From: Patescibacteria group bacterium
GTDB lineage: Bacteria; Patescibacteriota; Minisyncoccia; UBA6257; UBA9933
DNA: 64,000 bases
Assembly: GCA_038078555.1 (NCBI GenBank)
Contig: JBBTYQ010000001.1
Span: 60,966 to 124,965, forward strand
Reading direction: 5' to 3'
Shown piece by piece: positions 15,907 to 49,264 of the stretch. The first letter of the stretch is position 1. The number at the start of each line of letters is the position of its first letter. A program made the translations under genes and the position numbers. The notes under the pieces were generated by a model, which saw only the letters and a program-made list of their open reading frames with translations, searched no databases and was not told the origin of the DNA.

Positions 15907-15914
15907 CAGTATTA

Positions 15915-17030
15915 TTACTGGTTTTTAATTGGCATTAAAACATAAAACCAAGACTCGTCTTCGTTTGATCTAATAAGAGCTGGCTTGTTGGAACTGTTTA
16001 AGCCGAGAAAAATATTTTCTGATTTTATATTTTTTAATCCATCCAAAACAAATCGCCAATTAAAAACCGCCTCCATTGTCGCGCCGTTTATTTTTGCGGG
16101 TATTAAGTATTTATTTTCTCCAATAATTTGACTAAAAGAAAAAACCTCTATGCTTTTATTGCTTTCTTTTGTTATTATTTTTACCTCACTTAGTCTCTCC
16201 GCGAATATTCCGGCCAACTTAACCGCATTGATCAATTCTTCTTTGTTTATTATCACTTCGGTTTCGTAATTTTTTGGGATAATTTGCGTATATTCAGGAA
16301 ATTCGCCATTTATTAATCTTGAAATTATTTCTGTTTTTTCTGTTTTAAAAAGTATTTGATTTTGATCTAGGAAGATTGTTGTTTTTTCTTCGTCGTTGTT
16401 TTGCAATTCTTTTATTACCTCTTGAACTGCTTTTGATGGGATTATTATTTTGAATGGTTTATTAAAATTTGTATTGAATTGATTATTGTTGATTGTTTTT
16501 TCTGATAATCTAAAGCTGTCGGTTGTTACTATTTTTAGTGAATTTATTTGAAAATCAAATAAAACGCCGTTTAATTCTGGTTTGTTTTCAGCGGCAGTTG
16601 AATTAATAACAGAAGCCAGGGCGTCTCTTAAAATAAAATTTTTAATTTCTAAATGATTTTGCGTATTGGTAATTTGGGGAATAATCGGAAACTCTTCTTT
16701 TTTGGTGCCGTTTATTTCTGCTTGATAATTATCGGTTTTTATTAGTAATTTATTATTAATAATTTCTAGGGTTATTCTTTCGGTTTGAATATTATTAATA
16801 ATCGCTGAAAAAATATTTAAGGGAATTGTTAGTTCGCCGGTATTAATAATTTTTCCCGTTACAAAACTTGTTACTGCTAATTCCAGGTCGGTTGCTGATA
16901 ATTTTATTTTATTATCTTGAGTTTCTATTAAAAAATTTTTAAGTATCGGCAAACTAGAATTAGCCACGCTGATTCTTTCCAAAGATTTAATTCCTTCTTT
17001 TAAATTATTTTTTAAAATAATTAGATTCAT
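15915..17030 (-). CDS. dnaN: DNA polymerase III beta sliding clamp
   Basis: 371 aa, immediately downstream of dnaA. Three-domain length and the N-terminus MNLIILKNNLKEGIKSLERIS are typical of DnaN. Confidence 0.8.
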   Translation of the reverse strand: MNLIILKNNLKEGIKSLERISVANSSLPILKNFLIETQDNKIKLSATDLELAVTSFVTGKIINTGELTIPLNIFSAIINNIQTERITLEIINNKLLIKTDNYQAEINGTKKEEFPIIPQITNTQNHLEIKNFILRDALASVINSTAAENKPELNGVLFDFQINSLKIVTTDSFRLSEKTINNNQFNTNFNKPFKIIIPSKAVQEVIKELQNNDEEKTTIFLDQNQILFKTEKTEIISRLINGEFPEYTQIIPKNYETEVIINKEELINAVKLAGIFAERLSEVKIITKESNKSIEVFSFSQIIGENKYLIPAKINGATMEAVFNWRFVLDGLKNIKSENIFLGLNSSNKPALIRSNEDESWFYVLMPIKNQ

Positions 17031-17195
17031 AGCAATTTTGTTTATACTATTATTACTATTACTATTATTAATATATTAATATAGTAGCAGTAGTAGGGGG
17101 TTGTTAATTTGTGGACAAACGCATTTTCCCTTTATTTAAATAGATTTTTTAATAGAAATTATTTAATTACCTGGGGAAAAGCAGTGGATTTATTT
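17031..17195. promoter_or_regulatory. AT-rich dnaA-dnaN intergenic region with DnaA-box-like 9-mers; candidate oriC or DUE component
   Basis: tgtggacaa (1 mismatch to the reverse complement of TTATCCACA) and agtggattt, plus AT-rich tracts such as tattattactattactattattaatatattaatata. Confidence 0.3.
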
Positions 17196-18551
17196 CTAAA
17201 CACTTTCGTAAATATTTTCTTTAATTAATAAAATTTTTTGATTTAAATCGTGATTCTTGTTGATTTCCCTGGATATTTTTTCAAAAGAATGAATTGCTGT
17301 TGTGTGGTCCCTTTTCCCTATCTTATCCCCAATGTCAGGGTAAGACATCCTCAGGATATCCCGAAGCAAAAACACCGCAACTTGCCTTGGTTCAATAACT
17401 CTTTTTCTTCTTGAATGGTTGCTTATTTCTTCCGGAAGAATTTCAAAAAAAGCAGCAACCGCCTTAATTACTTGGTCAGAAGAAATTTTCTTAGTTGATT
17501 GCTGAAGAGTGTTATTAATGATTTCTTCTATCATTTTAGGCTGGAGCTCTATATTTTTAACTTCTTGGTAAAATATTATTTTATTTATAATACCCTCAAC
17601 CTCTCTGATGTTTCTTTGGACTTTTGAGGCGATGATTGAGCATAAATTATCCGGCAACACTTTTTTCATCTCCTGAAGCTTTGTTTTTATGATTGCCATG
17701 CGCATTTCATAATCAGGATAAGTAATATCAGCCGCCATGCCTCCCTCAAAGCGCGATCGGAGCCTTTCGTGGAGCGTAGGAATGGCTGACGGCGGGCGAT
17801 CCGAAGAAATAATTATTTGCTTATTGTTTTCATAAAGAACATTGAATGTGTGGAAAAATTCTTCTTCGCTTCGCTCCTTGCCGCCGATAAATTGAATATC
17901 GTCAATTATTAAAACATCAACATTACGGTAAATATTTTTTATATCATCCATTCTTTTATTACGGATCGCCGAAACTACTTCGTTGACAAATTTTTCTGAA
18001 TGAACATATTTAACTCTCACTTTATTTTTATGAGTTTTTTTTATTTCGTTGCCGATGGCCTGGATAAGATGTGTTTTACCAAGCCCTGTTCCGCCGTAAA
18101 TGAAAAAAGGATTATATTTTTTTCCGGGGTTTTTAATAATAGCCAATGACGCGGCATAGGCCAGTTCGTTTGACGAGCCGACGACAAAAGATTCTAAATT
18201 ATATTTCGGATGAAGGCCGGACTCCGGATCTATTTTAAATTCCGGAAAAACCAACTGCTTTTCTGTTTCATTTTCTTGGATAGTTTTAAACAGATCAGCT
18301 TTTTCGTTAAGAATGGCATATTCTATTTTTTTTATCGAAGGGTCGTGAGACCTAAGAGATTCAAAAATAATTTTATGGTACTTATTGGCCACCCATTCTT
18401 TGGCAAAATTATTGGATAAGCCGATAGAAACGCATCCCTCATCTGTTTTTTTGAGCAAACGGCTGTTTTTCATCCAAGTAAGGAAATTAGGCCGCGATAT
18501 TTGAATTTCTATTTCCGCTAAAGCGGTTTGCCAAAGCTGTTCAATGTCCAT
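17196..18551 (-). CDS. dnaA: Chromosomal replication initiator DnaA
   Basis: 451 aa. Walker A GGTGLGKTHL, AAA+ motifs, and a C-terminal DnaA-box-binding HTH region. Confidence 0.9.
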   Translation of the reverse strand: MDIEQLWQTALAEIEIQISRPNFLTWMKNSRLLKKTDEGCVSIGLSNNFAKEWVANKYHKIIFESLRSHDPSIKKIEYAILNEKADLFKTIQENETEKQLVFPEFKIDPESGLHPKYNLESFVVGSSNELAYAASLAIIKNPGKKYNPFFIYGGTGLGKTHLIQAIGNEIKKTHKNKVRVKYVHSEKFVNEVVSAIRNKRMDDIKNIYRNVDVLIIDDIQFIGGKERSEEEFFHTFNVLYENNKQIIISSDRPPSAIPTLHERLRSRFEGGMAADITYPDYEMRMAIIKTKLQEMKKVLPDNLCSIIASKVQRNIREVEGIINKIIFYQEVKNIELQPKMIEEIINNTLQQSTKKISSDQVIKAVAAFFEILPEEISNHSRRKRVIEPRQVAVFLLRDILRMSYPDIGDKIGKRDHTTAIHSFEKISREINKNHDLNQKILLIKENIYESV

Positions 18552-18733
18552 AAATAAAAATAATATTAAATATAAGCAAAATTAATAATTCTAATTGTTA
18601 TCCTATTTCAGTTTCCTGATTTAAGAAATAGCAAAAAAACGATAAATGTGGATTACTTGTGGAAAACTATTATTAACCGCATTTCCTCTGGACAAACCAA
18701 TCGCTTTTTTATTTTATTTTTCGTTATGCTATT
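18552..18733. promoter_or_regulatory. dnaA upstream region with degenerate DnaA boxes; dnaA promoter or oriC candidate
   Basis: ttatcctat, tgtggatta and tgtggaaaa lie within an AT-rich 180-bp spacer. Confidence 0.3.
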
Positions 18734-20428
18734 ATGTATATGCACTATAGCATGAATAATTCAAATTTTAATATTAAGGAAAAACTAAAGCAAATCTGGC
18801 AAGCCGGAAAAGAAAGAGAAGCCCAAAAACTTGCCAAAAATTTAAACCAAAACTATCTTGATTTGACAACTGCTTCAATAAACATTGAGGCTCTAGCTCT
18901 GATTCCCGAAGAAAATGCCAAAAAAGCCAAGGCTTTGGCGGTTAGTTTAAAAAATAATAATCTTGCCGTGGCGGTTGTTGATTTAAGCCTGACCGAAACT
19001 AAGGAAGAGATTAAAAATTTGGAAGCCAAAGGATTCAAGCTGAAGATTTTTATAGTTTCTTTAAAAAGTTTTGACTACGGATTTGGTTTTTATAAGTTTA
19101 TTTCCGAAAAAAAAAATCAAATTACCGGAAAAGTAGGGCTGGAAAAAGAAAAATTTTCGGAAATCAGAAAAAAAATTAATTCACTGAAAGATTTTACCGA
19201 ATTACTTTCTTCGGCATATGAAGAAAAAGGTGATGTCGCCGAAATTTTGGAAATAATTTTTGCCGGCGCTTTAATTAATCGAGCTTCCGATATTCACCTT
19301 GAGTCTGAAGAAAAAAGCGTCAATTTGAAAATTAGAGTTGACGGTTTGATGCGCAAAGTTTTTTCCGGAATAGAAAAAGAATTTTATGAACACCTGCTTT
19401 CCAGAATTAAACTGCTTTCCGGTTTAAAGATTAATATTCACGACGAGCCGCAAGACGGCCGGTTTACCATCGAATTTCCCGAAAAAAAAATTGAAACAAG
19501 AATAGCGATTGCGCCGTCAGAATTTGGAGAAGTGATTGTCATGCGCTTGCTTGATCCCGACAGCATTAATATTTCTTTAATTAGTTTAGGATTAAGAACA
19601 GACGATTTAAAAATTATAGAAAACGAGCTTAAAAAACCCAACGGTCTTATTTTAAATACCGGACCGACCGGTTCCGGAAAAACCACCACTCTTTATGCTT
19701 TTTTAAGCCACAAAAAAAATCCCGAAATTAAGCTAATCACCATAGAAGACCCGATAGAATATCACATGGAAGGCATTGAACAAACCCAGGTTGATGCAGA
19801 AAGCGGTTATACTTTTGCCACTGGGCTAAGGTCTTTAATGAGGCAAGATCCGGACGTTATTTTAGTTGGAGAAATAAGAGACAAAGAAACCGCTGAAATA
19901 GGTATTCAAGCGGCTTTAACGGGCCACCTGGTGTTTTCCACGATTCACGCCAACGCTTCAAGCGGCGCTATCCCCCGCTTGCTTGATTTGGGCGTAAAAG
20001 CAACAAGCATCGGCCCGGCTTTAAATTTAATTATCGGACAAAGGCTGGTTCGCCGGCTTTGTCCTGATTGTAAAAAAACCAAATCAATTGAGCCTGACTT
20101 AGAAAGCAAAATCCGCTCTTTTTTAAAAAAACTGCCTTCTCGAGCAAGCGCGGAACAATATAATGATATTAAAATCTATGAGGCTGTGGGCTGTGATAAG
20201 TGCGGCAATTTTGGATATAAAGGAAGAATCGCTATTTATGAGCTTTTAATAGTTGATAACTCTTTAGAAGAATTAATTGCGCAAGAAGCTGGCGAGCCTA
20301 GAATACAAGAGCTCGCCTCAAAACAAGGCATGACAACAATGCAGCAGGATGGTATATTAAAAACGATTTCAGGCATTACCACTTTTGATGAGGTTGAAAA
20401 TGTTACCGGGCCGCTCGAGTGGCAGTAA
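18734..20428 (+). CDS. Type II/IV secretion-system ATPase (GspE/PilB family)
   Basis: 564 aa. Walker A GPTGSGKTTTLYA, Walker B and His box, and a C-terminal Zn tetracysteine CPDC...CDKCG. The true start may be an internal Met. Confidence 0.85.
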   Translation: MYMHYSMNNSNFNIKEKLKQIWQAGKEREAQKLAKNLNQNYLDLTTASINIEALALIPEENAKKAKALAVSLKNNNLAVAVVDLSLTETKEEIKNLEAKGFKLKIFIVSLKSFDYGFGFYKFISEKKNQITGKVGLEKEKFSEIRKKINSLKDFTELLSSAYEEKGDVAEILEIIFAGALINRASDIHLESEEKSVNLKIRVDGLMRKVFSGIEKEFYEHLLSRIKLLSGLKINIHDEPQDGRFTIEFPEKKIETRIAIAPSEFGEVIVMRLLDPDSINISLISLGLRTDDLKIIENELKKPNGLILNTGPTGSGKTTTLYAFLSHKKNPEIKLITIEDPIEYHMEGIEQTQVDAESGYTFATGLRSLMRQDPDVILVGEIRDKETAEIGIQAALTGHLVFSTIHANASSGAIPRLLDLGVKATSIGPALNLIIGQRLVRRLCPDCKKTKSIEPDLESKIRSFLKKLPSRASAEQYNDIKIYEAVGCDKCGNFGYKGRIAIYELLIVDNSLEELIAQEAGEPRIQELASKQGMTTMQQDGILKTISGITTFDEVENVTGPLEWQ

Positions 20429-20451
20429 ATTTATAAAAAAGAAAATAAAAA

Positions 20452-20587
20452 CCGCCTAACTCTGTGGGCGTTATGAAACTCTTAATTGCAAAGAGGTTGA
20501 GAATTCCTTCGAGGAGAGGTCCAGCCAAGACCAGACCATCCAAAGTCTAAAAGAAATTCCTTTTGGTTTGCCCACAGGGTTAGGCAG
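20452..20587 (+). ncRNA. Candidate structured RNA of unknown class, closed by a long-range stem of about 15 bp; strand uncertain
   Basis: 5' cctaactctgtgggc pairs with 3' gcccacagggttagg (15 bp including G-U pairs). Internal hairpins are present, for example ctctt-aattgca-aagag. No ORF. The element sits just upstream of the ruvB extended -10 tgtataat. Confidence 0.25.
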
Positions 20588-29008: not shown

Positions 29009-30664
29009 ATGATTTTCGGACTTATCAAACTTTTTAAGTCTTTCTCGCGGAAAGAAATTATTGTTTTTGTTGTACTTTTTTTGGCATTTTTAGTTTCTGC
29101 TTCCTTGTTGCTTGCAAAATTTATCAGCGTTAATACTAAAATTTTGGCGGTTAGCGGAGGAAAATACGCGGAAGGAGCGGTAGGGCAACCGGCTTTTGTT
29201 AATCCGGTTTTGGCTTCAACTGATGTTGACAGAGATTTAGTTGAGCTTATTTTTAGCGACCTGGAGCGCATGGCGGAAAATTATAAGTCAGATGAAACCG
29301 GGAAAATTTGGCGCTATCGGCTTAAAGAAAACCTGTTTTGGCACGATAATAGGCCGATTACCAGCGATGATATAATTTTCACTATTGAGGCGATTAAGAA
29401 TCCCGATTCTTATTCCCCTCTTTTTATAAGCTGGCAGGGCGTTTCTGTTAATCGAATCAGCGAGCGCGAGATTGAGTTTAAATTGCCCGGATCTTATGTT
29501 TTTTTTAAAGATGCTTTGCGTGGCTTAAAGCCGATTCCTAAGCATATTTTTGCTGATATTCCAGCGGCTAATTTTCGGCTTTCCAATTATAATCTTGAGC
29601 CCATTGGAAGCGGGCCGTTTAAATTCGCCGGGTTTAAGAAAAAATCAGACGGCTATATTGTTTCTTATGATTTGGCTAAAAATGAAAATTATTTCGGAGA
29701 CAAAGCTTACTTGGACGGATTTAGTTTTGTTTTTTATACCGATGAATCTAGCTTGGTAAAGGCTTTTAATATGGGCATTATTGACGGCTTGGGCAATGTC
29801 AGCAAAGAAAGTCTTGGCAAAATTAATTTTCCAAGCAAAATTTTTTCTTTCAGAATGCTTAAATACTATGCGATTTTTTTAAATCCTTATGCCCAGCAGG
29901 GTCTAAAGGATAAAAATGTGAAAATGGCCTTAAGTTTAGCGATAGATAAAAATAAAATCATCGAAAAATCTTTTGGTCGTTATGCAGTGCCTGTTGCCGG
30001 GCCGTTAGTTGATGGAGCTGATGGATTTTCTAGCCTTGTTTATCCGGAAGAGATTTTTTCTTTGGAAAAATCCGTTCAAGTTTTTGAAGCCTCTGGTTGG
30101 ACTCTAGGCGAAGATAATATCAGGCAAAAGCAGTTTGGCAATGAGCTTGTCAGGTTGGATTTTAATTTGGTGGTGCCCAATAATCAGTTTCTGGTTGAAA
30201 CCGCTAATTTGATAAAAGAAGACTGGTTTAAAGCGGGCGTAAAATTAAATCTTTCTATCCTCCCGCTTTCGAGCATCAACGGCGATATTATTAAAAACAG
30301 AGATTATCAAATGATTCTGTTTGGAAATATAATAGGAGAAAGCCCGGATTTATTTTCCTTTTGGCATTCTTCGGAAAGATTTTATCCGGGTTATAACTTG
30401 GCGCTTTATGAAAATAAGTCGGCGGATAATCTAATAGAATTAATAAGAAAAAATTTTAACGATGAGAAAAGATATTCCGATTTGGCAAGTTTGCAGTCGC
30501 TGATTATCGGCGACCAACCCGCGTTTTTTCTTTATTCCCCTAATTATGTTTATGTCAGCAAGAAAAAACTTGGCGGCTTGGAGGAATATGCCATTTCTCT
30601 GCCCAGCGATCGGTTTAAGAACGCTGAAAAATTGTTTGTGAAAACAGCAAGAGCGCTGAAATAA
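29009..30664 (+). CDS. Membrane-anchored extracellular solute-binding protein, family 5 (peptide/nickel OppA/DppA-like); orphan
   Basis: 551 aa. N-terminal TM anchor. The length and motif pattern are typical of the SBP_bac_5 fold. Confidence 0.65.
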   Translation: MIFGLIKLFKSFSRKEIIVFVVLFLAFLVSASLLLAKFISVNTKILAVSGGKYAEGAVGQPAFVNPVLASTDVDRDLVELIFSDLERMAENYKSDETGKIWRYRLKENLFWHDNRPITSDDIIFTIEAIKNPDSYSPLFISWQGVSVNRISEREIEFKLPGSYVFFKDALRGLKPIPKHIFADIPAANFRLSNYNLEPIGSGPFKFAGFKKKSDGYIVSYDLAKNENYFGDKAYLDGFSFVFYTDESSLVKAFNMGIIDGLGNVSKESLGKINFPSKIFSFRMLKYYAIFLNPYAQQGLKDKNVKMALSLAIDKNKIIEKSFGRYAVPVAGPLVDGADGFSSLVYPEEIFSLEKSVQVFEASGWTLGEDNIRQKQFGNELVRLDFNLVVPNNQFLVETANLIKEDWFKAGVKLNLSILPLSSINGDIIKNRDYQMILFGNIIGESPDLFSFWHSSERFYPGYNLALYENKSADNLIELIRKNFNDEKRYSDLASLQSLIIGDQPAFFLYSPNYVYVSKKKLGGLEEYAISLPSDRFKNAEKLFVKTARALK

Positions 30665-34962: not shown

Positions 34963-36174
34963 ATGTTTATGAATGGCGAGAAAATAAAGAGTTTTGGCAA
35001 AGTTTTTTGGGGACCAGTGGTGATTGTTTGCGGAGTTTCTTTTTTTCTTGATCTTGTTTGGTTATCAAGATACTCAATGTCAGGAGAAGCGTTTGGTTTA
35101 GATATAAAGTGGAACTGGGGTTTGGCCGCGTTTCTTGCTCAATTGTTTTATCTTATAGCCAGTCTTCGGATGGTTGGACCTACGGAACTCGGGGCAAGGC
35201 TTTTTTTCGGAAAGCCTTTAAGCGAAATTTCATCTGGCTTGGTTTTTATTCCATTCGGGATTTGTGAGCTTAAGACAGAAACTCGGCTTACAATTCAGGA
35301 TGAAATTCCTGGTCCGCCCGAGCGCATCTGGAGAGAAAAGAAAGGGGAAGAAGGAGGAGAAGTTCCTTTAGGATATGTCCCTCCCATTAGGATTCCCTTC
35401 GGGTTTCCAAGAAGCGCAAAAGATCTCAAGGATTTAAGCATCAAGACTCCGGGGGGAGATGGGAAGCATTTAGATGCTCCGCCTGAAAATGATGCGCTCA
35501 ATATCAGAATTACAGCTGAAGTTGTTCCGGTAATACGTTGGCGAATTTCGGACTATCTTAAATTTTTAACCACAATCGGAAGCAGAGAAGAGGCGCGCAG
35601 GCAATTAGAAGACTGCGCTGTCGGCTCTCTTATAAGAGAATTTGCTAAGATTGCGCCTGCAGTTGCCTTGGCGAATCTCGGGACATACAGCTTTAATCTA
35701 GGAAAAGAAATAGAAGAACGGATTAAAGGATGGGGCATCGAGTTGGTGAGCTCTCAGATCAAAATGATTCAGTTTCATCGCGACTTGAATGAAGCCATAA
35801 GTAAGGTGTCGCAGGCAAAACTTGAAGCCGAAGCTCTTATTGCTTCGGCTGAAGCAAGAAAAAAAGAAGAACATCTTTTAGGTGAAGGAAAAGGAGCTGC
35901 GGAAAAAGCTGTACTTGACGGAAGAACGGAAGGTTTAAGAAATATGATAAAAGCGCTTGAAGTGCCGGCGCAGGTTATAATCGGCGCAGAAACAGCCAGG
36001 AAGATTACAGAAAATCCGGGTCAGAAAACAATAGTTGCCGGATCAGCTGGATTTGCTGATCTTATGGCAATAGGTTCTGTTTTAGGAGAGTCTCTCAAGG
36101 GAGAATCTCCAAAAAAAGAGTCTCTTAAGAAAGATTTTAAGAAAGAAGAGAATAAAAAGGAGGAGAAAAAATGA
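34963..36174 (+). CDS. SPFH/band-7 (stomatin/flotillin/HflKC-like) membrane protein
   Basis: 403 aa. N-terminal TM. SPFH core GLVFIPFGICELKTETRLTIQDE ... NIRITAEVVPVIRWRISDYLKF ... REEARRQLEDCAVGSLIREF. Ala/Glu-rich coiled coil AKLEAEALIASAEARKKEE. Strong SD aaaggagg. Local GC is visibly higher than in neighbouring genes. Confidence 0.65.
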   Translation: MFMNGEKIKSFGKVFWGPVVIVCGVSFFLDLVWLSRYSMSGEAFGLDIKWNWGLAAFLAQLFYLIASLRMVGPTELGARLFFGKPLSEISSGLVFIPFGICELKTETRLTIQDEIPGPPERIWREKKGEEGGEVPLGYVPPIRIPFGFPRSAKDLKDLSIKTPGGDGKHLDAPPENDALNIRITAEVVPVIRWRISDYLKFLTTIGSREEARRQLEDCAVGSLIREFAKIAPAVALANLGTYSFNLGKEIEERIKGWGIELVSSQIKMIQFHRDLNEAISKVSQAKLEAEALIASAEARKKEEHLLGEGKGAAEKAVLDGRTEGLRNMIKALEVPAQVIIGAETARKITENPGQKTIVAGSAGFADLMAIGSVLGESLKGESPKKESLKKDFKKEENKKEEKK

Positions 36175-36716
36175 GATTGGAGATGATTGTCTTCTTTGGT
36201 GCATTAGCGGCGATGATTTTTTATATGCTTCGCCGTCAAAGAATCAGAACTAAAGAAGCTAAAACAAATGGGCAGATAGGACCTGAAAAGCCAGCTAAGG
36301 ATGTTGTTAAAAAAGAAAAGAAAAAAAGCAGCATTTTTGGCACGGTGATAGTTCTTCTGATACTCGTACCTATCGGTTATTTGGGGTATGAGAAGTTAAG
36401 AGAAACTCAGCCGAGAACGCAGGCGATGGAATACGCGCTTTGCGCCGGAGGCGTTTATGACTTTGCCAATAACAAAATTCCTGGTAAAGTGCGAGTTGTT
36501 TTTAGGAATGATTGCTGGACTCAAGTAACTCTTCCTGCCACGGTAAGAGCCAGGACCGATTTCGACACAGATGCCGAGCTTGTTTTCATCGACGGAGCGC
36601 GGTATGTCGACGGTCCGGGCCGTCAGATATGGTACGGGAAATTCAGTCGCGAACTTTTTAAAGTTCGCGGAATAACTTCAAATGGGATTTTAAAAATCTC
36701 GTTTGAAGTAAGGTAG
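36171..36716 (+). CDS. Membrane protein translationally coupled to the SPFH gene (ATGA overlap); possible NfeD-like partner, function unknown
   Basis: 181 aa. Two TM helices, then a Cys-containing soluble C-terminal domain. Confidence 0.45.
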   Translation: MRLEMIVFFGALAAMIFYMLRRQRIRTKEAKTNGQIGPEKPAKDVVKKEKKKSSIFGTVIVLLILVPIGYLGYEKLRETQPRTQAMEYALCAGGVYDFANNKIPGKVRVVFRNDCWTQVTLPATVRARTDFDTDAELVFIDGARYVDGPGRQIWYGKFSRELFKVRGITSNGILKISFEVR

Positions 36717-36751
36717 TAAGAAAAAAAGAAAGGAGAGTGATAAAAATCAAA

Positions 36752-36786
36752 AGCCCCCGCATTTTATTGCGAGGGCTTTTTTATTT
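36752..36786. terminator. Bidirectional terminator
   Basis: aaaagcccccgcattttattgcgagggctttttt. Confidence 0.55.
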
Positions 36787-36809: not shown

Positions 36810-37166
36810 TTATCCTAAGAAGTTTGCCACAATTCTGTCTAAGGCAAATGCCAGAAGCGCAACAACTATTGCTATTGCGGCGTAAATAATTTGGTTTTTT
36901 GCATTGCCGACTTTTTCCGGATCGCCTCCGGATGTCAAATAAGTGAATGCCGCAAAAAGAATAAAGAACGCGGCAACCACAAAGAAAAGCGTATAAACCC
37001 AGCCTAAAATTCTCGTTACCACCGCATATAATCCCTGAATGTCGCTTATATTAGAAGGATTCGGCGCTCCGCCTCCGGGAAGAGGTGGTATTGTCAAAGC
37101 TAATGATGAGCTTGCGAATATCGATAAGCCGATAAGGACAGTTAATAAAATTAGGGAAATTTTCAT
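36810..37166 (-). CDS. Pilin-like small secreted two-TM protein, paralog 4 (VirB2/TrbC-like topology; putative T4SS-type pilin)
   Basis: 118 aa. Signal peptide, then TM1 LFFVVAAFFILFAAFTYL, loop TSGGDPEKVGNAKNQ, TM2 IIYAAIAIVVALLAFAL. Confidence 0.55.
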   Translation of the reverse strand: MKISLILLTVLIGLSIFASSSLALTIPPLPGGGAPNPSNISDIQGLYAVVTRILGWVYTLFFVVAAFFILFAAFTYLTSGGDPEKVGNAKNQIIYAAIAIVVALLAFALDRIVANFLG

Positions 37167-37237
37167 TGAAATTTTTATAACTTTTATAATTACGAGCCTG
37201 ATATGTTCTCGACCTTTTTAATCTATAAATTATAGCA

Positions 37238-37585
37238 TCATTGCAGGAATTTACTAATAATTACGTCAAAACTGAACGCTAATAAAGCTACTATAATGGC
37301 AATCACCGCATAAAGAATCCGCTTATTGGATTCTGTGATTTTTGTCGGGTCGCCTTGGGCGGTTAAATAAGAGAAAGCGGCTATAATAATAAAAAAAGCC
37401 GCAACAATGAAAAATAGCGTATAAGCCCAACCGAGAATTTTTTCAAAAATGCGGAATATGTCATTAAAACTTTTTATCGGCGAATCAGAAGGCGCGCCAG
37501 CCGCATTGATAAAAAAGATAGGGATAAAAATCAATAAGGCAGATAGCGAGAGTTTTTTAAAATATTTCTTGGATAATATTGTCAT
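37238..37585 (-). CDS. Pilin-like small secreted two-TM protein, paralog 3
   Basis: 115 aa. ...ILGWAYTLFFIVAAFFIIIAAFSYLTAQGDPTKITESNKRILYAVIAIIVALLAFSF.. is about 70% identical to paralog 4 over the core. Confidence 0.55.
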   Translation of the reverse strand: MTILSKKYFKKLSLSALLIFIPIFFINAAGAPSDSPIKSFNDIFRIFEKILGWAYTLFFIVAAFFIIIAAFSYLTAQGDPTKITESNKRILYAVIAIIVALLAFSFDVIISKFLQ

Positions 37586-37592
37586 AAAAAGT

Positions 37593-37955
37593 TTAAATTA
37601 ATTTTGCTCCTAAGGCTTCTTGAATAATGTAAATTACGCCCCACGAACAGATGATAACGGCATAACCTATTGCGGCCCACATAATTGTCTTCCTTCCGCT
37701 TATTACTTGATCCGGCTTGTCGCCGGCGGTAAGTATCAAAAATCCGCCGTAAAGCACCATTAAAGCGACAATTGGGGCGCCGAGCTTGATTAAATAGCCG
37801 ATAATTCTTTGAACTAATTGAAGAAAAGTTTGGTCTTGCAAAGGATCTCTTAATCCTCCTGTTTCAAGAACTCCGGCAGCCAAAGCTGTTTGAAGCGAAA
37901 AGAAATAAGCAGAAACAAAAAACGATAAAATGTATTTTTTTGAGAAATTACCCAT
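37593..37955 (-). CDS. Pilin-like small secreted two-TM protein, paralog 2
   Basis: 120 aa. Signal peptide. ...LMVLYGGFLILTAGDKPDQVISGRKTIMWAAIGYAVII.. Same topology and the same LT(A/S)xGD motif. Confidence 0.5.
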   Translation of the reverse strand: MGNFSKKYILSFFVSAYFFSLQTALAAGVLETGGLRDPLQDQTFLQLVQRIIGYLIKLGAPIVALMVLYGGFLILTAGDKPDQVISGRKTIMWAAIGYAVIICSWGVIYIIQEALGAKLI

Positions 37956-38025
37956 TTATTTTATTATTTGATAATTGATATTTAAAGTCAATCCCGCGCG
38001 ATTTATGATTTTGTGGCACAGATAT

Positions 38026-38436
38026 TTAACAGTGGATTGCCGTTCTTATTTCCAATGGATTAAACGGCTGGCCGGTTAAAAGCATAAGCAATTCTTTGAT
38101 TATCAGCCAGGCGGCTAGCGCTATTAAGAGCCCGATTACCGCGGCTTTAATAACATCTCCCCCTCTTTTGAGTTCGCTGGCAGAGTCTCGGCTTATCATA
38201 ATTACAAAACCGCCGTAAATTATGAAAATAACTGTTAAAGGAATAGCAACGCTATAAAGCGCAAAATTTATAATATTTTCTCCGAGAGTCAGTAAATCGC
38301 AAAACTTGCAACTTGCTCCTTCGCAAGGAATAAGCCCGGCGGCGCTTGCCATAAAAGGAGAATTTAAAATCGTAAACAAAAAAATAACAGCATAAAAAGC
38401 AAAAATTTTAAATTTTAAATAATTTTGACTTTTCAT
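38026..38436 (-). CDS. Pilin-like small secreted two-TM protein, paralog 1 (more divergent, Cys-containing)
   Basis: 136 aa. Signal peptide. ...FIIYGGFVIMISRDSASELKRGGDVIKAAVIGLLIALAAWLI... Confidence 0.45.
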   Translation of the reverse strand: MKSQNYLKFKIFAFYAVIFLFTILNSPFMASAAGLIPCEGASCKFCDLLTLGENIINFALYSVAIPLTVIFIIYGGFVIMISRDSASELKRGGDVIKAAVIGLLIALAAWLIIKELLMLLTGQPFNPLEIRTAIHC

Positions 38437-38438
38437 TT

Positions 38439-39746
38439 TTATTTTAGCGAATTTATTTTACTTTCCGCTTCTTCGAGCGCTTTTTGAGGCGATAATCGGC
38501 CGGCTAAAACCGCTTCAATCGCATCAGAAAAAATTTTTCTTGATTCATTGGCATCCGGCTGGGGCCAGGATTCTGCGGTTAAGGCTTGAGCGGCAAAAAT
38601 TCCCAAATTATCATCAGCTTGGTATTTTGTGATTAGAGACCTCAAAGCCGGAGGCCGTTTGCTGGCTTCTAAATATTTTTCAGCGATCTCGGGATTGCCA
38701 AAGCTTGAGACAATAAAATTCCATGCCCAAGCATTATTTTTGCTTTGCTTGGAAACTGCCAATCCCCAATAATCAGGATAATTTTTTTTATCAGTAGCTT
38801 CAATATTTTCCATTTGCAGCATTGGCGCAATTGCAATGTTTAAAAAGGGATTTTTTGATTTAATTATTGAAATAGCCGAGCTGTAATCAAAGATTGCGGC
38901 TGTTTGGCCTTGACTGAAGCTATCCAAAGAATTTCGCAGATTATCGCTCCATGTGTAATAAATATTTTGCGGATTGCTAAAACTCAAATAAAAATTGAAA
39001 GCTTCCAGTCCTTCGTCGTGGCTGAAAATAGGTTTGTCTCGCTCGTCGATTATACTTGATCCGAATTGCATCATTATCAAATTTAATAAGTCCGAAGCAT
39101 TGGCAATGCTTTTTCCCGAGCCGCCGATAGCTGCCGCTGATTTGATAATTCTGTTACTAGGGTCAACTTCTGTTAATCGCGGAATAATATATTTAAATTG
39201 AGTCCAATTATTTGGAGCAATTGCTATGCCTTTGGCATCGAAAATGCCTTTATTGTAAATAAAAGCCAAAGTGTCGATATAAATTGGTAAAGCGTAAATT
39301 TTTTCTGATTCTTCAGGCGTTTGTTTAAGGACAAAATCCTGTTTTACGACACTCGGAAAACTTTCGCTGAAACTTTTTAAAGTTAATTGTTCGGAATTTA
39401 TCGGAGAAATAATTTCCGAGTATTTCGGCAGCCAGCTGTTATGAATCATGAAAATATCCGGTCCTTTTCCGCCGGCTAGCGAAGAAATAAGCTGGCTCTC
39501 ATAATTCTTTTCGCTTAATTGGAGATAATTTATCTGTACGCTCTGATAAATTTGATTATAGGCTTCAATTAAAGGGCGCATATTGTTTTCTTCCTCAATG
39601 CCCCAGATGTTTATTGTCACTCCTTCTCCGCTTCCGTTATTTGACGACCTTAATCCCGGAATAACGCCGATAATTACCAAAATAAAAAATAAAATAATTC
39701 CGCCGGCAGCGGCAATAATGATAATTTGGTTACGGGAAAAATTCAT
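38439..39746 (-). CDS. Membrane-anchored extracellular solute-binding protein, family 1 (sugar-binding MalE-like); orphan
   Basis: 435 aa. N-terminal TM anchor. The SBP_bac_1-like pattern includes PDIFMIHNSWLPKY and the C-terminal helix AIEAVLAGRLSPQKALEEAESKIN. Confidence 0.6.
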   Translation of the reverse strand: MNFSRNQIIIIAAAGGIILFFILVIIGVIPGLRSSNNGSGEGVTINIWGIEEENNMRPLIEAYNQIYQSVQINYLQLSEKNYESQLISSLAGGKGPDIFMIHNSWLPKYSEIISPINSEQLTLKSFSESFPSVVKQDFVLKQTPEESEKIYALPIYIDTLAFIYNKGIFDAKGIAIAPNNWTQFKYIIPRLTEVDPSNRIIKSAAAIGGSGKSIANASDLLNLIMMQFGSSIIDERDKPIFSHDEGLEAFNFYLSFSNPQNIYYTWSDNLRNSLDSFSQGQTAAIFDYSSAISIIKSKNPFLNIAIAPMLQMENIEATDKKNYPDYWGLAVSKQSKNNAWAWNFIVSSFGNPEIAEKYLEASKRPPALRSLITKYQADDNLGIFAAQALTAESWPQPDANESRKIFSDAIEAVLAGRLSPQKALEEAESKINSLK

Positions 39747-39765: not shown

Positions 39766-42210
39766 TTATAATATAACCACGCCTGCCACCTTATCCCCTG
39801 CTTTTAATTTCATTATTCTCACTCCGGAAGTGGCGCGGCCGGCAGTTCTGATATCAGCGATTTTTGTTTTAATGATTTGGCCTTTGCTTGAGAGCGCTAA
39901 AAGCTCTTCTTCATCGCTGATAATTTGAGCTGAAATAATCAAACCGGTTTTAGCCGAGATTTTTGCGGTTTTGATTCCACTGCCTCCCCGGCTTTGGATT
40001 TTGTATTCTTTGAGATTGGTTTGCTTGGCAAATCCGTTCTCGGTTACTATCAACAATTTCTCGTTTTTTCCCAATCCTTTTTCGCTTGTTTTCATTATAT
40101 CAAGTCCAGCCACAAAATCACCTTTTTTTAATCTGATTGATTTCACGCCGGAGGCGTTTCGTCCCATTGGCCGCAGTTGAGATTCTTTAAATCTTATTGC
40201 CTGGCCTTGAGCTGTCGGAGTTATTACTTCGTCTTTTCCCGAAGACAGCTTCACCCATTTTAATTCGTCGCCCTTGGAAAGATTTATAGCGATTATTCCA
40301 GTTTTTCTGATATTAAAAAAATCTTCTAAGGGCGTTTTCTTAATAACTCCTTCCTTGGTGGCCATTACCAAAAAGTTATCGATTAATTTTTCCGGATAAC
40401 TTACAATTGCGCTTACTTTTTCTTCAGACGGAATTTCCAAAAAATTTTGGATTAATTTGCCTTTGGAAATTCGGCTGGCGGCGGGAATTTCATAAACTTT
40501 GGTTTGATAAACTCTGCCTCGGTCGGTAAAAAATAAAATATTGTCGTGAGTGTCGGCCGCAAGAAAATGGCTGATAAAATCTTCTTCCCCGACTTCCGAA
40601 CCAATCAGGCCTTTGCCGCCTCGGCGCTGGATTTTAAATGTCGTCGGCGGCACTCTTTTGATATAACCGCTTGAAGACAGCGTGATAACCGCCTCTTCCT
40701 GAGGAATCAAATCTTCTTCTTTGAATTCTTTGAGTACTCCGCTTGCCACCTTTGTTCTGCGTTCATCGCCGTATTTTTCCTTGATTTCTAAAAGCTCGTC
40801 TTTGACAACTTTAAGTATTTTGGCCGGGCTTTTAAGAAGCGCTTCCAGTTCAGCGATTAATTTTTTCTTTTCCTTGAGCTCATCTTCTATTTTTTGTCTC
40901 TCTAAAGCCGCTAACGCTCTTAGCTTCATTTCCAAAATCGCCTGAGCCTGAATATCGGTAAGCTTGAATTCTTTTATCAGCTTTTGCCGGGCTTCTTCCG
41001 TGTCTTTTGATTTTTTAATTGTGGCAATTATTTTATCAATTACCGAAAGAGCCTTTGCCAAGCCTTCCAATATATGAGCTCTTTCTTTGGCTTTTTTAAG
41101 GTCAAATTGGACTCGGTGTTCAATAACTTTTTTGCGGTGTTCCGAATAGGCCGCCAAAATGTCCTTTAATGACATTAGTTGCGGCTGAATTCCATTTGCC
41201 AGCGCAATCAAATTAAGATGAAAATCTTTTTGAAGGTCAGTGTGCTTATAAAGAGAATTTAAAATCTTCTGGGCCGAGGCGCTGCCTTTGACTTCAATTA
41301 CTATTCGTATGCCTTCGCGGTCGCTTTCGTCCCGAACGTCTTTAATGCCTTCAATTCTTTTATCCTGAACCAGCTCTGCTATTTTTATTATTAACTCCGA
41401 TTTATTTACCTGATAAGGAATTTCGGTGATTACTATATTAAATTGGCCTTCTTTGCCGCGTTCTATTATTTCTGCTTTGGCTCTGGTGGTAATCGGCCCT
41501 TTGCCGGAGCTATAAGTTTCCACCATGGATTTTTTGTCATAAATAATTCCGCCGGTGGGAAAATCAGGGCCTTGGACGAATTGCAATAAATCTTCAGTTG
41601 ATGACTTGGGGTTATCAATAAGATGAACAGTCGCATCGACAATTTCTGATAAGTTATGGGGAGGAACATTGGTAGTCATGCCGACCGCAATGCCGGAAGT
41701 TCCATTAAGGAGAAAATTAGGCAATTTTGAAGGAAGTACTTTTGGCTCTAATTTTGTGGCATCGTAATTTTGCTGCCAATCAACAGTTTCTTTTTCTATA
41801 TCAACAAGCATTTCTTCCGCAATTTTTGATAATCGGCACTCTGTGTATCTCATCGCCGCTTGATTATCGCCGTCGATTGATCCCCAGTTGCCTTGGCCTT
41901 CTATTAAAGGATAACGCAGAGAAAAATCCTGAGTCATTCTGGCTAAGGCGTCGTAAACCGCAATATCGCCGTGCGGGTGGTATTTACCGAGTACTTCTCC
42001 GACCACATTAGCCGACTTTCTGAATTTAACAGAATGTGTTAATCCGCTTTCCCACATTGCCCAAAGGATTCTTCGGTGAACCGGTTTTAAGCCGTCTCGG
42101 ACATCCGGCAAGGCGCGGGAAACAATTACGGACATTGCATAATCAAGATAAGATTCCTGAAGTTCTTTGGTTATATCCTTTTTTTCAATTTTTTGTGAAC
42201 TATTATCCAT
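39766..42210 (-). CDS. gyrA: DNA gyrase subunit A
   Basis: 814 aa. Motifs [29 protein letters not shown] and the active-site region are present. C-terminal beta-pinwheel repeats. Confidence 0.95.
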
Positions 42211-46468: not shown

Positions 46469-47770
46469 ATGGTTGAAATTTATAAAGGCATTCTTCAGAG
46501 TATTTTTCAGGCGTTTTCTTACAGCTGGTGGATTGTTTTGCCGATTTTTTTGTTTTCGATTTTTTGGAAAGTTTGGATAATTTATATTCGGACAAGGACT
46601 ATCAGCAAAATCAAATGGAAGCTTTTTGAAATTAAAGTTACCACGGAAGTTTTGAAAACTCCTAAATCAATGGAGCAAGTGATTGCCGGTCTTTATGCTT
46701 CTTATTCTTACGGCCTTAATTGGCTAAAGAAATACGTTGATGGTGAAGTTGAAAAACGGTTTTCTTTGGAAATGGTCGGCACTTCCAGCGGCGTTTATTT
46801 TTATATTTATGCTCCGGCTGACAGCCAGAATTTGGTGGAATCGGCTGTTTACGGTCAGTATCCTGAAGCGGAAATAAATGAAGTTGAAGATTATGCCGAT
46901 TTTGTTTCTTCGGTTTTGCCCAATGAAGTTTATGATGTTTTTGGCATGGAACTGGGACTGGCTAGAGATAGTTTTTATCCGATTAAAAGATATTATTATT
47001 TTGAGGCAATGGTTGAAGAACAGCGCATTGACCCTATAGCTGCCATTTCCGAAGTAATGTCAAAATTAAAAGAAGACGAAAAAATCTGGATTCAGATTTT
47101 AATCAGTCCGACCGGATCAGCTACCGGCAACGACTGGAAAAAAGAAGGTGAGAAAAAAATAGACGAAATTATCGGCCGGAAAAAAGACAAGAAATCCGGA
47201 GGATTTTTTAGCGACATCAATGTTTTTATCAATAATTTTTTATGGGCGCCGGTGGAGCCTCCGATTTGGCCGGGCGAAAAAAAACCCGATGCGCCGACTA
47301 ATAGAACTCTTTCTCCGGATGAACAGGACTTAGTTAAAGAAATTTACAATAAAATTTCTTATTTGGGTTTTGAGTTTTTAATCCGGTTCGTTTATATTGA
47401 CCGGCAAGATAGTTTTTCGCCCGCCAATGTTTCGGCGATAATGGGCGCTTTGCATCAGTTTAACACCCAAAATCTTAATGCTTTTAAGCCCAATACCATG
47501 ACTATAACTAATTACGATTCTTTATTAGCCAGAATTTTTCCCTCGTATAAAAAAATGATAGTGCTTTACAAAAAAAGAAGATTATTCAATTATTATAAAC
47601 AAAGAAGATTCGGGCAATTTAATAAAATCAGAGAAGAGAAGTTTTCCGTATTAAATACGGAAGAATTGGCAACTATTTTTCACTTCCCGACCGTTATTGT
47701 GAAAGCGCCTTCGCTTAAGAGGGTTGAAGCCAAAAAAGGAAGTCCGCCTTCTGGGTTGCCCACAGAATAA
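46469..47770 (+). CDS. Hypothetical membrane-anchored protein (N-terminal TM, large soluble domain)
   Basis: 433 aa with no recognisable motifs. Located immediately upstream of the VirD4-like ATPase. Confidence 0.45.
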   Translation: MVEIYKGILQSIFQAFSYSWWIVLPIFLFSIFWKVWIIYIRTRTISKIKWKLFEIKVTTEVLKTPKSMEQVIAGLYASYSYGLNWLKKYVDGEVEKRFSLEMVGTSSGVYFYIYAPADSQNLVESAVYGQYPEAEINEVEDYADFVSSVLPNEVYDVFGMELGLARDSFYPIKRYYYFEAMVEEQRIDPIAAISEVMSKLKEDEKIWIQILISPTGSATGNDWKKEGEKKIDEIIGRKKDKKSGGFFSDINVFINNFLWAPVEPPIWPGEKKPDAPTNRTLSPDEQDLVKEIYNKISYLGFEFLIRFVYIDRQDSFSPANVSAIMGALHQFNTQNLNAFKPNTMTITNYDSLLARIFPSYKKMIVLYKKRRLFNYYKQRRFGQFNKIREEKFSVLNTEELATIFHFPTVIVKAPSLKRVEAKKGSPPSGLPTE

Positions 47771-47797: not shown

Positions 47798-49264
47798 ATG
47801 GATAATAACAGCGAAACAACTTTATTCGGAAAAACTACTTTTAGAAATCAAATGGTTCGTTTTGGCATCAAAACCGACGATCGTCGCCGGCATGTTTATA
47901 TTGTTGGTAAAACCGGTGTCGGCAAAACAACGCTTTTGGAGAGTTTGACTATAGCTGACATTAGAGCTGGCCGCGGTTTGGCTGTGGTTGACCCTCACGG
48001 CGAGTATGCTGAACGAATGTTGGAATTTATTCCGGAAAATAGAATTGACGATGTTATTTATTTTAACCCGGCTGACCTTAGTAATCCGATTGCTTTTAAT
48101 CCCCTGGAGTCAATTGACCCGGAATATCGCCATTTAGTTGCCTCAGGCATTATGGGCGTGTTTAAAAAAATTTGGCCCGATGTTTGGTCAGCCAGAATGG
48201 AATATATATTAAACAACGCTCTTGTGTCGCTTTTGGAATATCCCGGCGCAACTTTGCTTGGCATCATGAGAATGCTTTCGGAAAAAGATTATCGAGCTAA
48301 GGTGGTGGAAAATTTGAAAGACCCGGTTGTAAAAGCTTTCTGGGTTAATGAGTTCGCCCGTTATACTCAAAGACTTGAAACCGAAGCAGTAGCGGCTATT
48401 CAAAACAAAGTCGGCCAATTCGTGACTAATCCTATGGTGAGAAATATTATAGGCCAGCCTCATTCCACTATCGATATGAGAAAAATAATGGATGAAGGAA
48501 AAATTTTAATTGTTAATCTTTCTAAGGGAAGAATCGGCGAAGATAATTCAGCTCTTTTGGGAGCAATGATGATTACCAAGCTTCAGTTGGCGGCTATGTC
48601 GAGAGTTGACACGCCGATGGAAAAGCGCCGTGATTTTTATCTTTACGTTGACGAATTTCAGAATTTTGCCACCGAATCTTTCGCTGATATTTTATCGGAA
48701 GCGAGGAAATACCGCCTTAATTTAATCTTGGCCCATCAATATATTGAACAGCTTTCCGAAGAAGTTCAGGCTGCTGTTTTCGGCAATGTCGGCACCTTGG
48801 TTTGTTTTAGAGTCGGCGCCACAGATGCTGAATTCCTGGAAAAAGAATTAATGCCGGAATTTAATGCTCAAGACTTAGTCAATTTGTCAAAATATAATAT
48901 TTATTTGAAGCTGATGATTGACGGCATGGCTTCCAAGGCTTTTTCCGCTCAGACTCTTGACCCGTTTGAGCCGGCCATAGAATCTTTTAAAGACGTTATT
49001 ATTCAAAACAGCCAAAACAAATACGGCGTCCCCCGTTCTATTATTGAAGAAAAAATCGCTGAAGAGTGGAAATCTGAAGCGAAAATTTTTGAAGATAAAA
49101 CTTTGCGCCGCAGCGAACAGCCTCTTTCCAAAATTCTTACTCCTCAAGGCGTACCTTTTAAAAAAGAAGCTGCACCTTCAAGAGAAAGAGAAAAAAAAGA
49201 AGTTGATGTTGATGAATTAAGGAGAGCGATAGAGGAATCGTTAAGAAAAAGAGAAGATAAATAA
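47798..49264 (+). CDS. Soluble P-loop ATPase of the VirD4/TraD/TrwB (FtsK-HerA superfamily) coupling-protein type
   Basis: 488 aa. Walker A GKTGVGKTTLLE followed by VVDPHGEY. Walker B FYLYVDEFQNF. ARKYRLNLILAHQYIEQL matches the RK(F/Y)G...Q...QL signature of TraD/TrwB/VirD4. No TM segments. Confidence 0.5.
   Translation: MDNNSETTLFGKTTFRNQMVRFGIKTDDRRRHVYIVGKTGVGKTTLLESLTIADIRAGRGLAVVDPHGEYAERMLEFIPENRIDDVIYFNPADLSNPIAFNPLESIDPEYRHLVASGIMGVFKKIWPDVWSARMEYILNNALVSLLEYPGATLLGIMRMLSEKDYRAKVVENLKDPVVKAFWVNEFARYTQRLETEAVAAIQNKVGQFVTNPMVRNIIGQPHSTIDMRKIMDEGKILIVNLSKGRIGEDNSALLGAMMITKLQLAAMSRVDTPMEKRRDFYLYVDEFQNFATESFADILSEARKYRLNLILAHQYIEQLSEEVQAAVFGNVGTLVCFRVGATDAEFLEKELMPEFNAQDLVNLSKYNIYLKLMIDGMASKAFSAQTLDPFEPAIESFKDVIIQNSQNKYGVPRSIIEEKIAEEWKSEAKIFEDKTLRRSEQPLSKILTPQGVPFKKEAAPSREREKKEVDVDELRRAIEESLRKREDK

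Follow-up and report, generated by a model that had tools for sequence, protein, structure and literature searches.

What four tandem genes for small, pilin-like membrane proteins might build on a chromosome where no secretion machinery is encoded next to them is the question raised by the locus described here. The genes, designated P4, P3, P2 and P1 in order of transcription (paralogs 1, 2, 3 and 4, respectively, of an initial annotation), lie on the minus strand at positions 36810-38436 of a 64,000-nt stretch of DNA, hereafter the window (contig JBBTYQ010000001.1, positions 60,966 to 124,965, assembly GCA_038078555.1 of a Patescibacteria group bacterium). The explanation favoured here, to which a probability of roughly 0.8 is given as a whole, is that they encode Sec-exported two-helix hairpin proteins of the PF18895 family, remote relatives of the VirB2/TrbC pilins, that would be assembled by a type IV secretion system (T4SS) encoded elsewhere, and that the array of this Wolfebacteria-like lineage belongs to the transcription unit of a solute-binding protein (SBP) gene and is evolutionarily tied to that gene rather than to virB4.

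The source of the window is a metagenome-assembled genome from Hainich groundwater (ENA contig Hain_H41_01um_R2_16, 243,117 bp), the nearest named relatives of which are Ca. Wolfebacteria, Jorgensenbacteria and Harrisonbacteria of the class Paceibacteria. What the T4SS-like system of Patescibacteria does has been called 'completely unknown' (PMC11665869), with uptake of nutrients or DNA being speculated, and a 2025 review describes the T4SSs of this group as the only ones in monoderms that may have pili.

Family and topology of the four proteins

Four consecutive minus-strand open reading frames (ORFs) of 136, 120, 115 and 118 amino acids (aa) were confirmed, corresponding to P4 (38026-38436), P3 (37593-37955), P2 (37238-37585) and P1 (36810-37166), the last gene of the array. 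Unaltered copies of all four were found on at least five independent contigs or assemblies; P4 is listed at NCBI as 'hypothetical protein AAB596_00500 [Patescibacteria group bacterium]'.

Against the PF18895 (T4SS_pilin) profile, which has a gathering threshold of 26.6 bits, P1 (41.5 bits), P3 (35.8 bits) and P2 (31.8 bits) passed, and P4, at 26.0 bits, fell 0.6 bit short. The matches of the four genes cover 76-90% of the 71-position model and, with E values between 1e-5 and 1.5e-10, cannot be ascribed to chance. A profile of P4-type proteins aligned to one of P1-type proteins with an hhalign probability of 99.4%. PF18895 was also found in 56 of 56 homologues retrieved with P1 by word index, in 54 of 54 aligned family members on rescanning (the next commonest family, TrbC, appeared in 9 of the 54 and others were sporadic), and in 11 of 11 P4-type proteins (best E value among the ten homologues of P4, 1.3e-10), TrbC being matched as well by four of these. 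An exhaustive phmmer search with P1 returned 9207 relatives at E≤1e-3 among 1.84e9 cluster representatives. By sequence, P1-P4 are members of the PF18895 T4SS_pilin family, which is a very large one.

Hydropathy analysis gave each protein three hydrophobic segments, namely an N-terminal signal-like segment and two helices of transmembrane (TM) length. The signal segments end in small-x-small sites of the A-x-A type (SLA↓L, AGA↓P, ALA↓A and ASA↓A), at which cleavage is predicted by the −3/−1 rule. AlphaFold2 models built from homologue alignments agreed with this arrangement: that of P1 (mean predicted local distance difference test score, pLDDT, 77) has a signal helix at residues 4-20, a low-confidence linker and a hairpin of helices 43-78 and 83-117 joined by a loop at 79-82, and that of P4 (pLDDT 74) has helices at 4-25, 42-81 and 86-121 with a poorly predicted C-terminal tail. 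All four proteins thus show the topology of the family, in which the signal peptide precedes a pair of TM helices connected by a short polar loop, as the initial annotation had proposed. The loop motif described there, LT(A/S)xGD(P/K)..K, is recognizable in P1-P3 (LTSGGDPEK, LTAQGDPTK and LTAGDKPDQ); the fit of P4 is only loose. In 15 aligned sequences W56, Y58, AAFTYLT and GDPEK are all invariant.

Type IV pilins of the PilA type are likewise small secreted filament subunits, and a PilB-type ATPase is encoded in the window, but they have one TM helix and a class III signal peptide with the G↓F-x-x-x-E motif. Direct reading of P1-P4 revealed no G↓(F/M)xxxE prepilin-peptidase site, and with two TM helices besides the signal peptide the proteins are ruled out as PilA-type pilins, in accord with the initial annotation.

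Association with a solute-binding protein gene

The gene immediately upstream of P4, with only two bases between its stop codon and the P4 start, is an SBP_bac_1 gene (38439-39746, minus). Its product matched PF01547 (2e-22) and gave a full-length profile match to solved sugar-binding SBPs (5ci5, 7e-25); it has an N-terminal TM anchor and no cysteine, and is predicted to be a membrane-anchored, family-1, MalE-like protein of the carbohydrate-binding type. No ATP-binding cassette (ABC) permease or ATPase genes were found in the 64-kb window. A second solute-binding protein gene, SBP_bac_5 (29009-30664, plus), likewise has no ABC partner in the 64 kb.

To the other side of the SBP gene, and separated from it by 19 bp, is gyrA (39766-42210, minus), so that, as noted in the initial annotation, the array is co-oriented with both genes. 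Within the array the gaps are 70 bp (P4 to P3), 7 bp (P3 to P2) and 71 bp (P2 to P1). A hairpin resembling an intrinsic terminator, with a 13-bp stem and a T-run, starts 30 bases past the P1 stop codon (36749-36780, minus) and is likely to mark the end of the transcription unit. Since the spacing is tight and this hairpin follows the last gene, the genes are predicted to form one transcription unit. A σ70-like promoter match (TTGACT-17-AATAAT; 37963-37991, minus) in the 70-bp gap between P4 and P3 is a possible internal promoter, the count of such matches in the region being no higher than that expected from shuffled sequence. An extended −10-like element, TGcTATAAT (37229-37237, minus; read by eye and unscored), directly follows the P2 stop codon 63 bases upstream of P1. 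The promoter-like elements in these two gaps of about 70 bp are weak candidates only.

Loci of relatives were collected by alignment of the pilins (20 genome loci), by alignment of the SBP (80 metagenome loci) and by exact look-up (three loci), and were annotated locally with the family hidden Markov model (HMM) and BLAST. A block consisting of Lactamase_B_3, a small TM protein, gyrA, SBP_bac_1 and three to seven pilin genes was present in 19 genome and 75 metagenome loci, the gyrA genes being 61-76% identical to that of the window. A pilin gene directly follows the SBP gene on the same strand in 93 of the 94 loci with enough downstream sequence, the sole exception having a broken SBP ORF, although this ratio overstates the independent support, because the counted loci all represent a single orthologous neighbourhood and include metagenome contigs that nearly duplicate one another. 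The two genes overlap by 4 bp in 22 loci. The pair is kept where the gyrA block is inverted (L090 and L091) or missing (L082), and also where the rest of the array has been inverted or displaced by insertions (L021, L035, L010, L012, L023 and L040). The SBP gene, called an orphan in the initial annotation, is instead the partner that accompanies the array most constantly. The spacing of gyrA is equally tight, with no plausible functional tie, and although this gene is syntenic in most relatives it is probably not functionally linked to the array.

Known arrays and the position of the secretion machinery

Arrays of this kind have been described before. In a search of 3,035 Patescibacteria genomes with profiles that included PF18895 and PF04956 (Quinonero-Coronel et al., Microb Genom 2025; PMC12102498), VirB2-like pilins were found in 1,948 VirB4-positive assemblies and lay near virB4 in 1,135 of them, so that about 40% were not near it. 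The same study reported 441 VirB2-like arrays of two to 11 genes in 383 assemblies, with a mean identity of 25% and a maximum of 54%, commonest in Microgenomatia and Saccharimonadia. P1-P4 constitute an array as defined there (at least two PF18895 or PF04956 genes, i-E<0.001 and >50% HMM coverage, in tandem or one gene apart). The lack of adjacent machinery, which the initial annotation had singled out as worth examining, is therefore a feature of an array class that is already published, including its distance from virB4. The words for SBP and gyrA are absent from that paper.

Among the arrays that the study counted is that of Ca. Southlakia epibionticum, SEML1_0014-0019, six PF18895 proteins encoded beside VirB4-, PrgI- and VirB6-like genes; each of the six proved essential by transposon sequencing (Wang et al. 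2023, PMC10633639). Both this set and the published arrays resemble P1-P4 in family (PF18895 with or without PF04956), tandem arrangement, low paralog identity, chromosomal location near the origin and lack of a relaxase. The S. epibionticum genes, however, belong to Saccharimonadia and stand inside a virB4/prgI/virB6 cluster with no SBP gene beside them, whereas the array described here and those of about 95 Paceibacteria loci are detached from virB4 and have an SBP_bac_1 gene ahead of them. What is new here is the clade-wide SBP pairing, together with the ancient subunit types and fused forms described below; these are modest leads. The pairing of the SBP with the first pilin, seen in about 95 loci of a deep Paceibacteria clade, nevertheless provides a testable handle on the function of VirB2-like proteins in the largest class of Patescibacteria.

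The only T4SS-type ATPase in the window is a VirD4/TraG-like coupling protein encoded 9.4 kb from the array (47798-49264, plus; PF10412, PF02534 and PF12696), as had been stated in the initial annotation. It lacks an N-terminal TM region, and its match to NF045973 (4.8e-17) is far under the cut-off. This ATPase may act in trans; coupling proteins of the kind are rarely encoded near virB4 (148 of 5713; PMC12102498). Its Pfam matches begin near residue 20, and the preceding gene (46469-47770, plus) encodes a DUF8128 protein of 433 aa that has TM helices at its N-terminus; the two may represent a split, two-component coupling protein.

By analogy with relatives, a VirB4 would be encoded in this genome beyond the 84 kb that were read (the window with its small ORFs, plus 10 kb of flanking sequence on either side): the genomes of loci L016, L021, L030, L032 and L033, in which the block described above is present, are marked 'VirB4: Yes' in Table S1 of PMC12102498. 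Two kinds of candidate machinery component were rejected. Walker A ORFs near related arrays proved to encode FtsK, FtsH, ChlI-like proteins, PNPase, RNase J and H+-PPase rather than VirB4. A T2SSE ATPase gene adjoining dnaA (18734-20428) was considered for VirB11 and turned down, since its product carries an MshEN domain and is of the PilB type.

Paralog types, positional orthology and fused forms

The identity of P1 and P2 is 53% in an 87-aa BLAST alignment, 47% in a full-length comparison and about 62% in the hairpin core, rather than the approximately 70% given in the initial annotation; that P4 and P3 are more divergent was borne out, all the remaining pairs being 20-30% identical. Positional orthologues of each of the four were identified in about 20 other genomes at 32-71% identity, compared with 20-53% among the paralogs within the array. 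By positional best hits, the first place after the SBP gene always belongs to the orthologue of P4 (type A). That of P3 (type B) occupies the second position, or the last in one subclade, at 33-71% identity. P2 and P1, the third and fourth genes of the array, belong to a core type that varies in copy number (type C). Since positional orthologues are more alike than paralogs within one genome, the types are older than the clade and look functionally distinct. The array is thus an ordered set of three or more ancient subunit types, rather than of interchangeable variants.

Type A is the most distinctive. After its signal peptide, P4 has a mature N-terminus (GLIPCEGASCKFCDLL) with three cysteines, the helical hairpin and a tail ending in a cysteine. 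The corresponding signature, which has four conserved cysteines and combines A↓GLVPCG..C.(F/W)C(D/H)L at the start of the mature protein with GPWN..C at the C-terminus, was found in 67 of 93 first genes after the SBP gene. A disulfide link between type A and the SBP was considered and rejected, there being no cysteine in the SBP. The first 'pilin' of about nine more distant loci is longer (278-456 aa), with a large N-terminal ectodomain ahead of the hairpin. Five such proteins (L030:1396-2760, L083:6692-8062, L092:7325-8446, L110:6773-7924 and L112:7322-8677) are 370-456 aa and carry a large extracellular region at the N-terminus and the hairpin at the C-terminus only; in that of L030, PF18895 is matched at residues 369-437.

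Multi-unit proteins, with two to eight matched stretches, account for 47 of the 150 best family representatives. Three of these, P0068 (L115:1777-3435), P0069 and P0152, have six, seven and eight hairpins, respectively, with short linkers and only one signal peptide each. The array that contains P0068 otherwise consists of single-unit pilin genes; that P0068 is a gene-calling artefact was rejected, its ORF being uninterrupted under code 11 with no internal signal peptides. The SBP-linked clade also has fusions of two hairpins, in L054 (P0071, L054:6412-7254) and L112 (L112:8870-9472). Such fusions are topologically compatible with hairpins that have both termini outside, and point to a unit with a set number of hairpins rather than to a simple homopolymer.

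What the array may build

According to the favoured explanation, P1-P4 would first be exported by Sec and their signal peptides cleaved, as sequence rules and family membership suggest. The hairpins would then insert with the N- and C-termini outside and the short, charged, GDPEK-type loop inside, to be taken up by a monoderm-type T4SS with VirB4-, PrgI- and VirB6-like components encoded elsewhere on the chromosome, as in relatives and in the published literature, and built into a hetero-oligomer at the cell surface, either an envelope structure or an extracellular one. Type A, being cysteine-rich, TrbC-like, always first and sometimes fused to an ectodomain, would be a specialized or minor subunit, possibly at the tip or base or acting as an adaptor, and its termini might be tied by disulfides. 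Type B would be a second distinct subunit, and type C, with its variable copy number, is likely to provide the bulk of the structure; P1, which has the best family score, is a candidate for the major subunit. Taken together, the SBP pairing, the constant order of the ancient types and the fused forms favour a heteromeric structure and hint that it is connected with solute capture.

A bolder version, in our view rather unlikely, is that the pilins of Wolfebacteria-like Paceibacteria form a hetero-oligomeric ring or conduit of hairpins in the envelope, of fixed stoichiometry, with type A coupled to the surface MalE-like SBP, and not an extended pilus. It is suggested because the SBP-pilin pair is near-universal in the lineage, the types are ancient and non-redundant, and fusions of two to eight hairpins exist. 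If true, it would link the essential T4SS-like apparatus of Patescibacteria to the capture or import of host-derived carbohydrates rather than to the export of DNA or effectors.

The main alternative, conceivable though unlikely, is that a hetero-oligomeric membrane ring of hairpins and the SBP make up a self-contained module for capturing and conducting host-derived carbohydrates, independent of a T4SS or only loosely tied to it. The evidence for such a module comes solely from gene neighbourhood and fused members: in 93 of 94 loci the first pilin gene comes straight after the SBP gene, an arrangement that survives inversions, the SBP is a full-length MalE-like protein, the window contains no genes for ABC permeases or ATPases, no VirB4 is encoded near about 95 loci, and fusions of six to eight hairpins behind one signal peptide occur within arrays. 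In other classes of Patescibacteria, however, PF18895 pilins are encoded within virB4 clusters (1135 assemblies), and in S. epibionticum they are essential alongside such a cluster with no adjacent SBP gene. Moreover, gyrA overlaps and is co-oriented in many loci with no plausible functional link, which makes tight spacing weak evidence in streamlined genomes, and the sampled loci represent one SBP orthologue group, the count of which is inflated by shared ancestry.

By analogy to Bartonella and Anaplasma (PMC12102498), the genes might instead encode recently diversifying, interchangeable filament subunits for antigenic or host-range variation, in line with the diversification of a surface filament subunit suggested in the initial annotation. 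The low identity among paralogs (20-53%), the copy number of three to seven among relatives and the apparently duplicated type C genes could be read in this way. Recent diversification is nevertheless improbable, because same-position orthologues are more alike than the paralogs of one genome, in relatives whose gyrA is 61-76% identical, and because all six S. epibionticum paralogs are individually essential and so not redundant; type A also keeps its four-cysteine signature.

Several observations weigh against the favoured explanation itself, among them that none of the searches tied the family directly to a pilin of solved structure. P4 alone matched PF04956 (TrbC/VirB2), at 23.6 bits across 91 of 98 model positions, so that the TrbC scores of P1-P4 are all under the Pfam cut-off of 27.9 bits. 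hhalign comparison with Agrobacterium VirB2 (from PDB 8cue) gave probabilities of 4% and 0.5%, a single-sequence target being a weak test, and the family profile matched only designed TM hairpins among all PDB sequences. With the P1 model as query, Foldseek found nothing in the PDB at E≤0.001, the top hits being generic coiled coils and channels, although this search is uninformative because a helical hairpin is too simple a fold to discriminate. VirB4, VirB6, VirB11, VirB3/PrgI and TrsD were not found by Pfam in the 84 kb, in agreement with the initial annotation for the genes adjacent to the array, in a search that was not seeded with Patescibacteria VirB4; no VirB3 or VirB4 lay within about 26-36 kb on either side of the array, and no VirB4 candidates were found within 6-10 kb of it in about 95 related loci. 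Reviews state that no pilus of PF18895 proteins has ever been visualized, and covalent family members with six to eight hairpins suit a fixed membrane complex better than an extruded homopolymer. A tblastn search of 72,556 PLSDB plasmids with P1 and P4 also gave no match, probably owing to low-complexity masking and divergence.

The VirB2/TrbC-like pilin assignment of the initial annotation therefore holds at the level of PF18895, and homology to VirB2/TrbC, below formal thresholds, is plausible. VirB2, TrbC and TraA pilins (PF04956; T-pilus, PDB 8cue and 8exh) are, like P1-P4, small proteins with a long signal peptide and a pair of hydrophobic helices that are connected by a short charged loop and have their termini outside, but they belong to diderm cells with one major pilin, whereas P1-P4 are several non-redundant paralogs in a monoderm host with no adjacent VirB3-B11. 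VirB2 and TrbC are cyclized head-to-tail; type A has N- and C-terminal cysteines instead, which, as a speculation by analogy, might be another way of tying the termini. Mbov_0395 and ICE_MMCAP2_0565 (NF045849, the Mbov_0395 pilin-like family) offer a second comparison, as two-helix pilin-like proteins of monoderm conjugation of the MPF-FATA type. P1 and P2 align to nearly the whole of that model, at 36.9 and 38.1 bits, and the other two score 21.0 and 16.1 bits, none reaching the equivalog cut-off of 40; in Mycoplasma the protein comes from a single gene beside VirB4 in an integrative and conjugative element, and not from a chromosomal array.

That P1-P4 are unrelated small hydrophobic proteins, holin-like or c-subunit-like, matched through compositional bias is largely refuted, for although weak secondary Pfam matches to TerC, MrpF and cation-ATPase TM regions and the uninformative fold search would suit that view, the invariant residues of the 15 aligned sequences, the presence of PF18895 in 54 of 54 homologues with only sporadic other matches, and the recurrence of the family in T4SS clusters leave it next to no likelihood.

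Other features of the window

The window represents core chromosome, with rnpA-yidC, dnaN-dnaA, the PilB-type ATPase gene, ruvB, the RNase J gene, gyrA, rpoB and rpoC. The dnaN-dnaA pair (15915-18551) lies at the cumulative GC-skew minimum (14000-20500), a likely origin of replication. The array is about 19 kb from dnaA and is transcribed head-on to replication.

Convergent on the array are an SPFH/Band-7 gene and a gene for a 181-aa two-TM protein, perhaps NfeD-like (34963-36716, plus); this pair also stands next to the array in L016, L019, L020, L022 and L067. In some Paceibacteria loci the gyrA ORF is 1210-1700 aa long (L031:1148-4780, L051:2259-5996, L056:1800-5876, L084:523-5628, L086:2346-5984 and L093:2166-5855), compared with 814 aa in the window, which suggests intein-like insertions. 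Farther from the array, a 607-aa secreted protein (4948-6771, minus) has about eight cysteine-rich repeats, C(K/R)xxxEC..YC.......C..FA, with no family match, and its gene adjoins that of a 1130-aa surface protein with fn3, LamG and dockerin domains (1541-4933, minus); both proteins are candidate adhesins.

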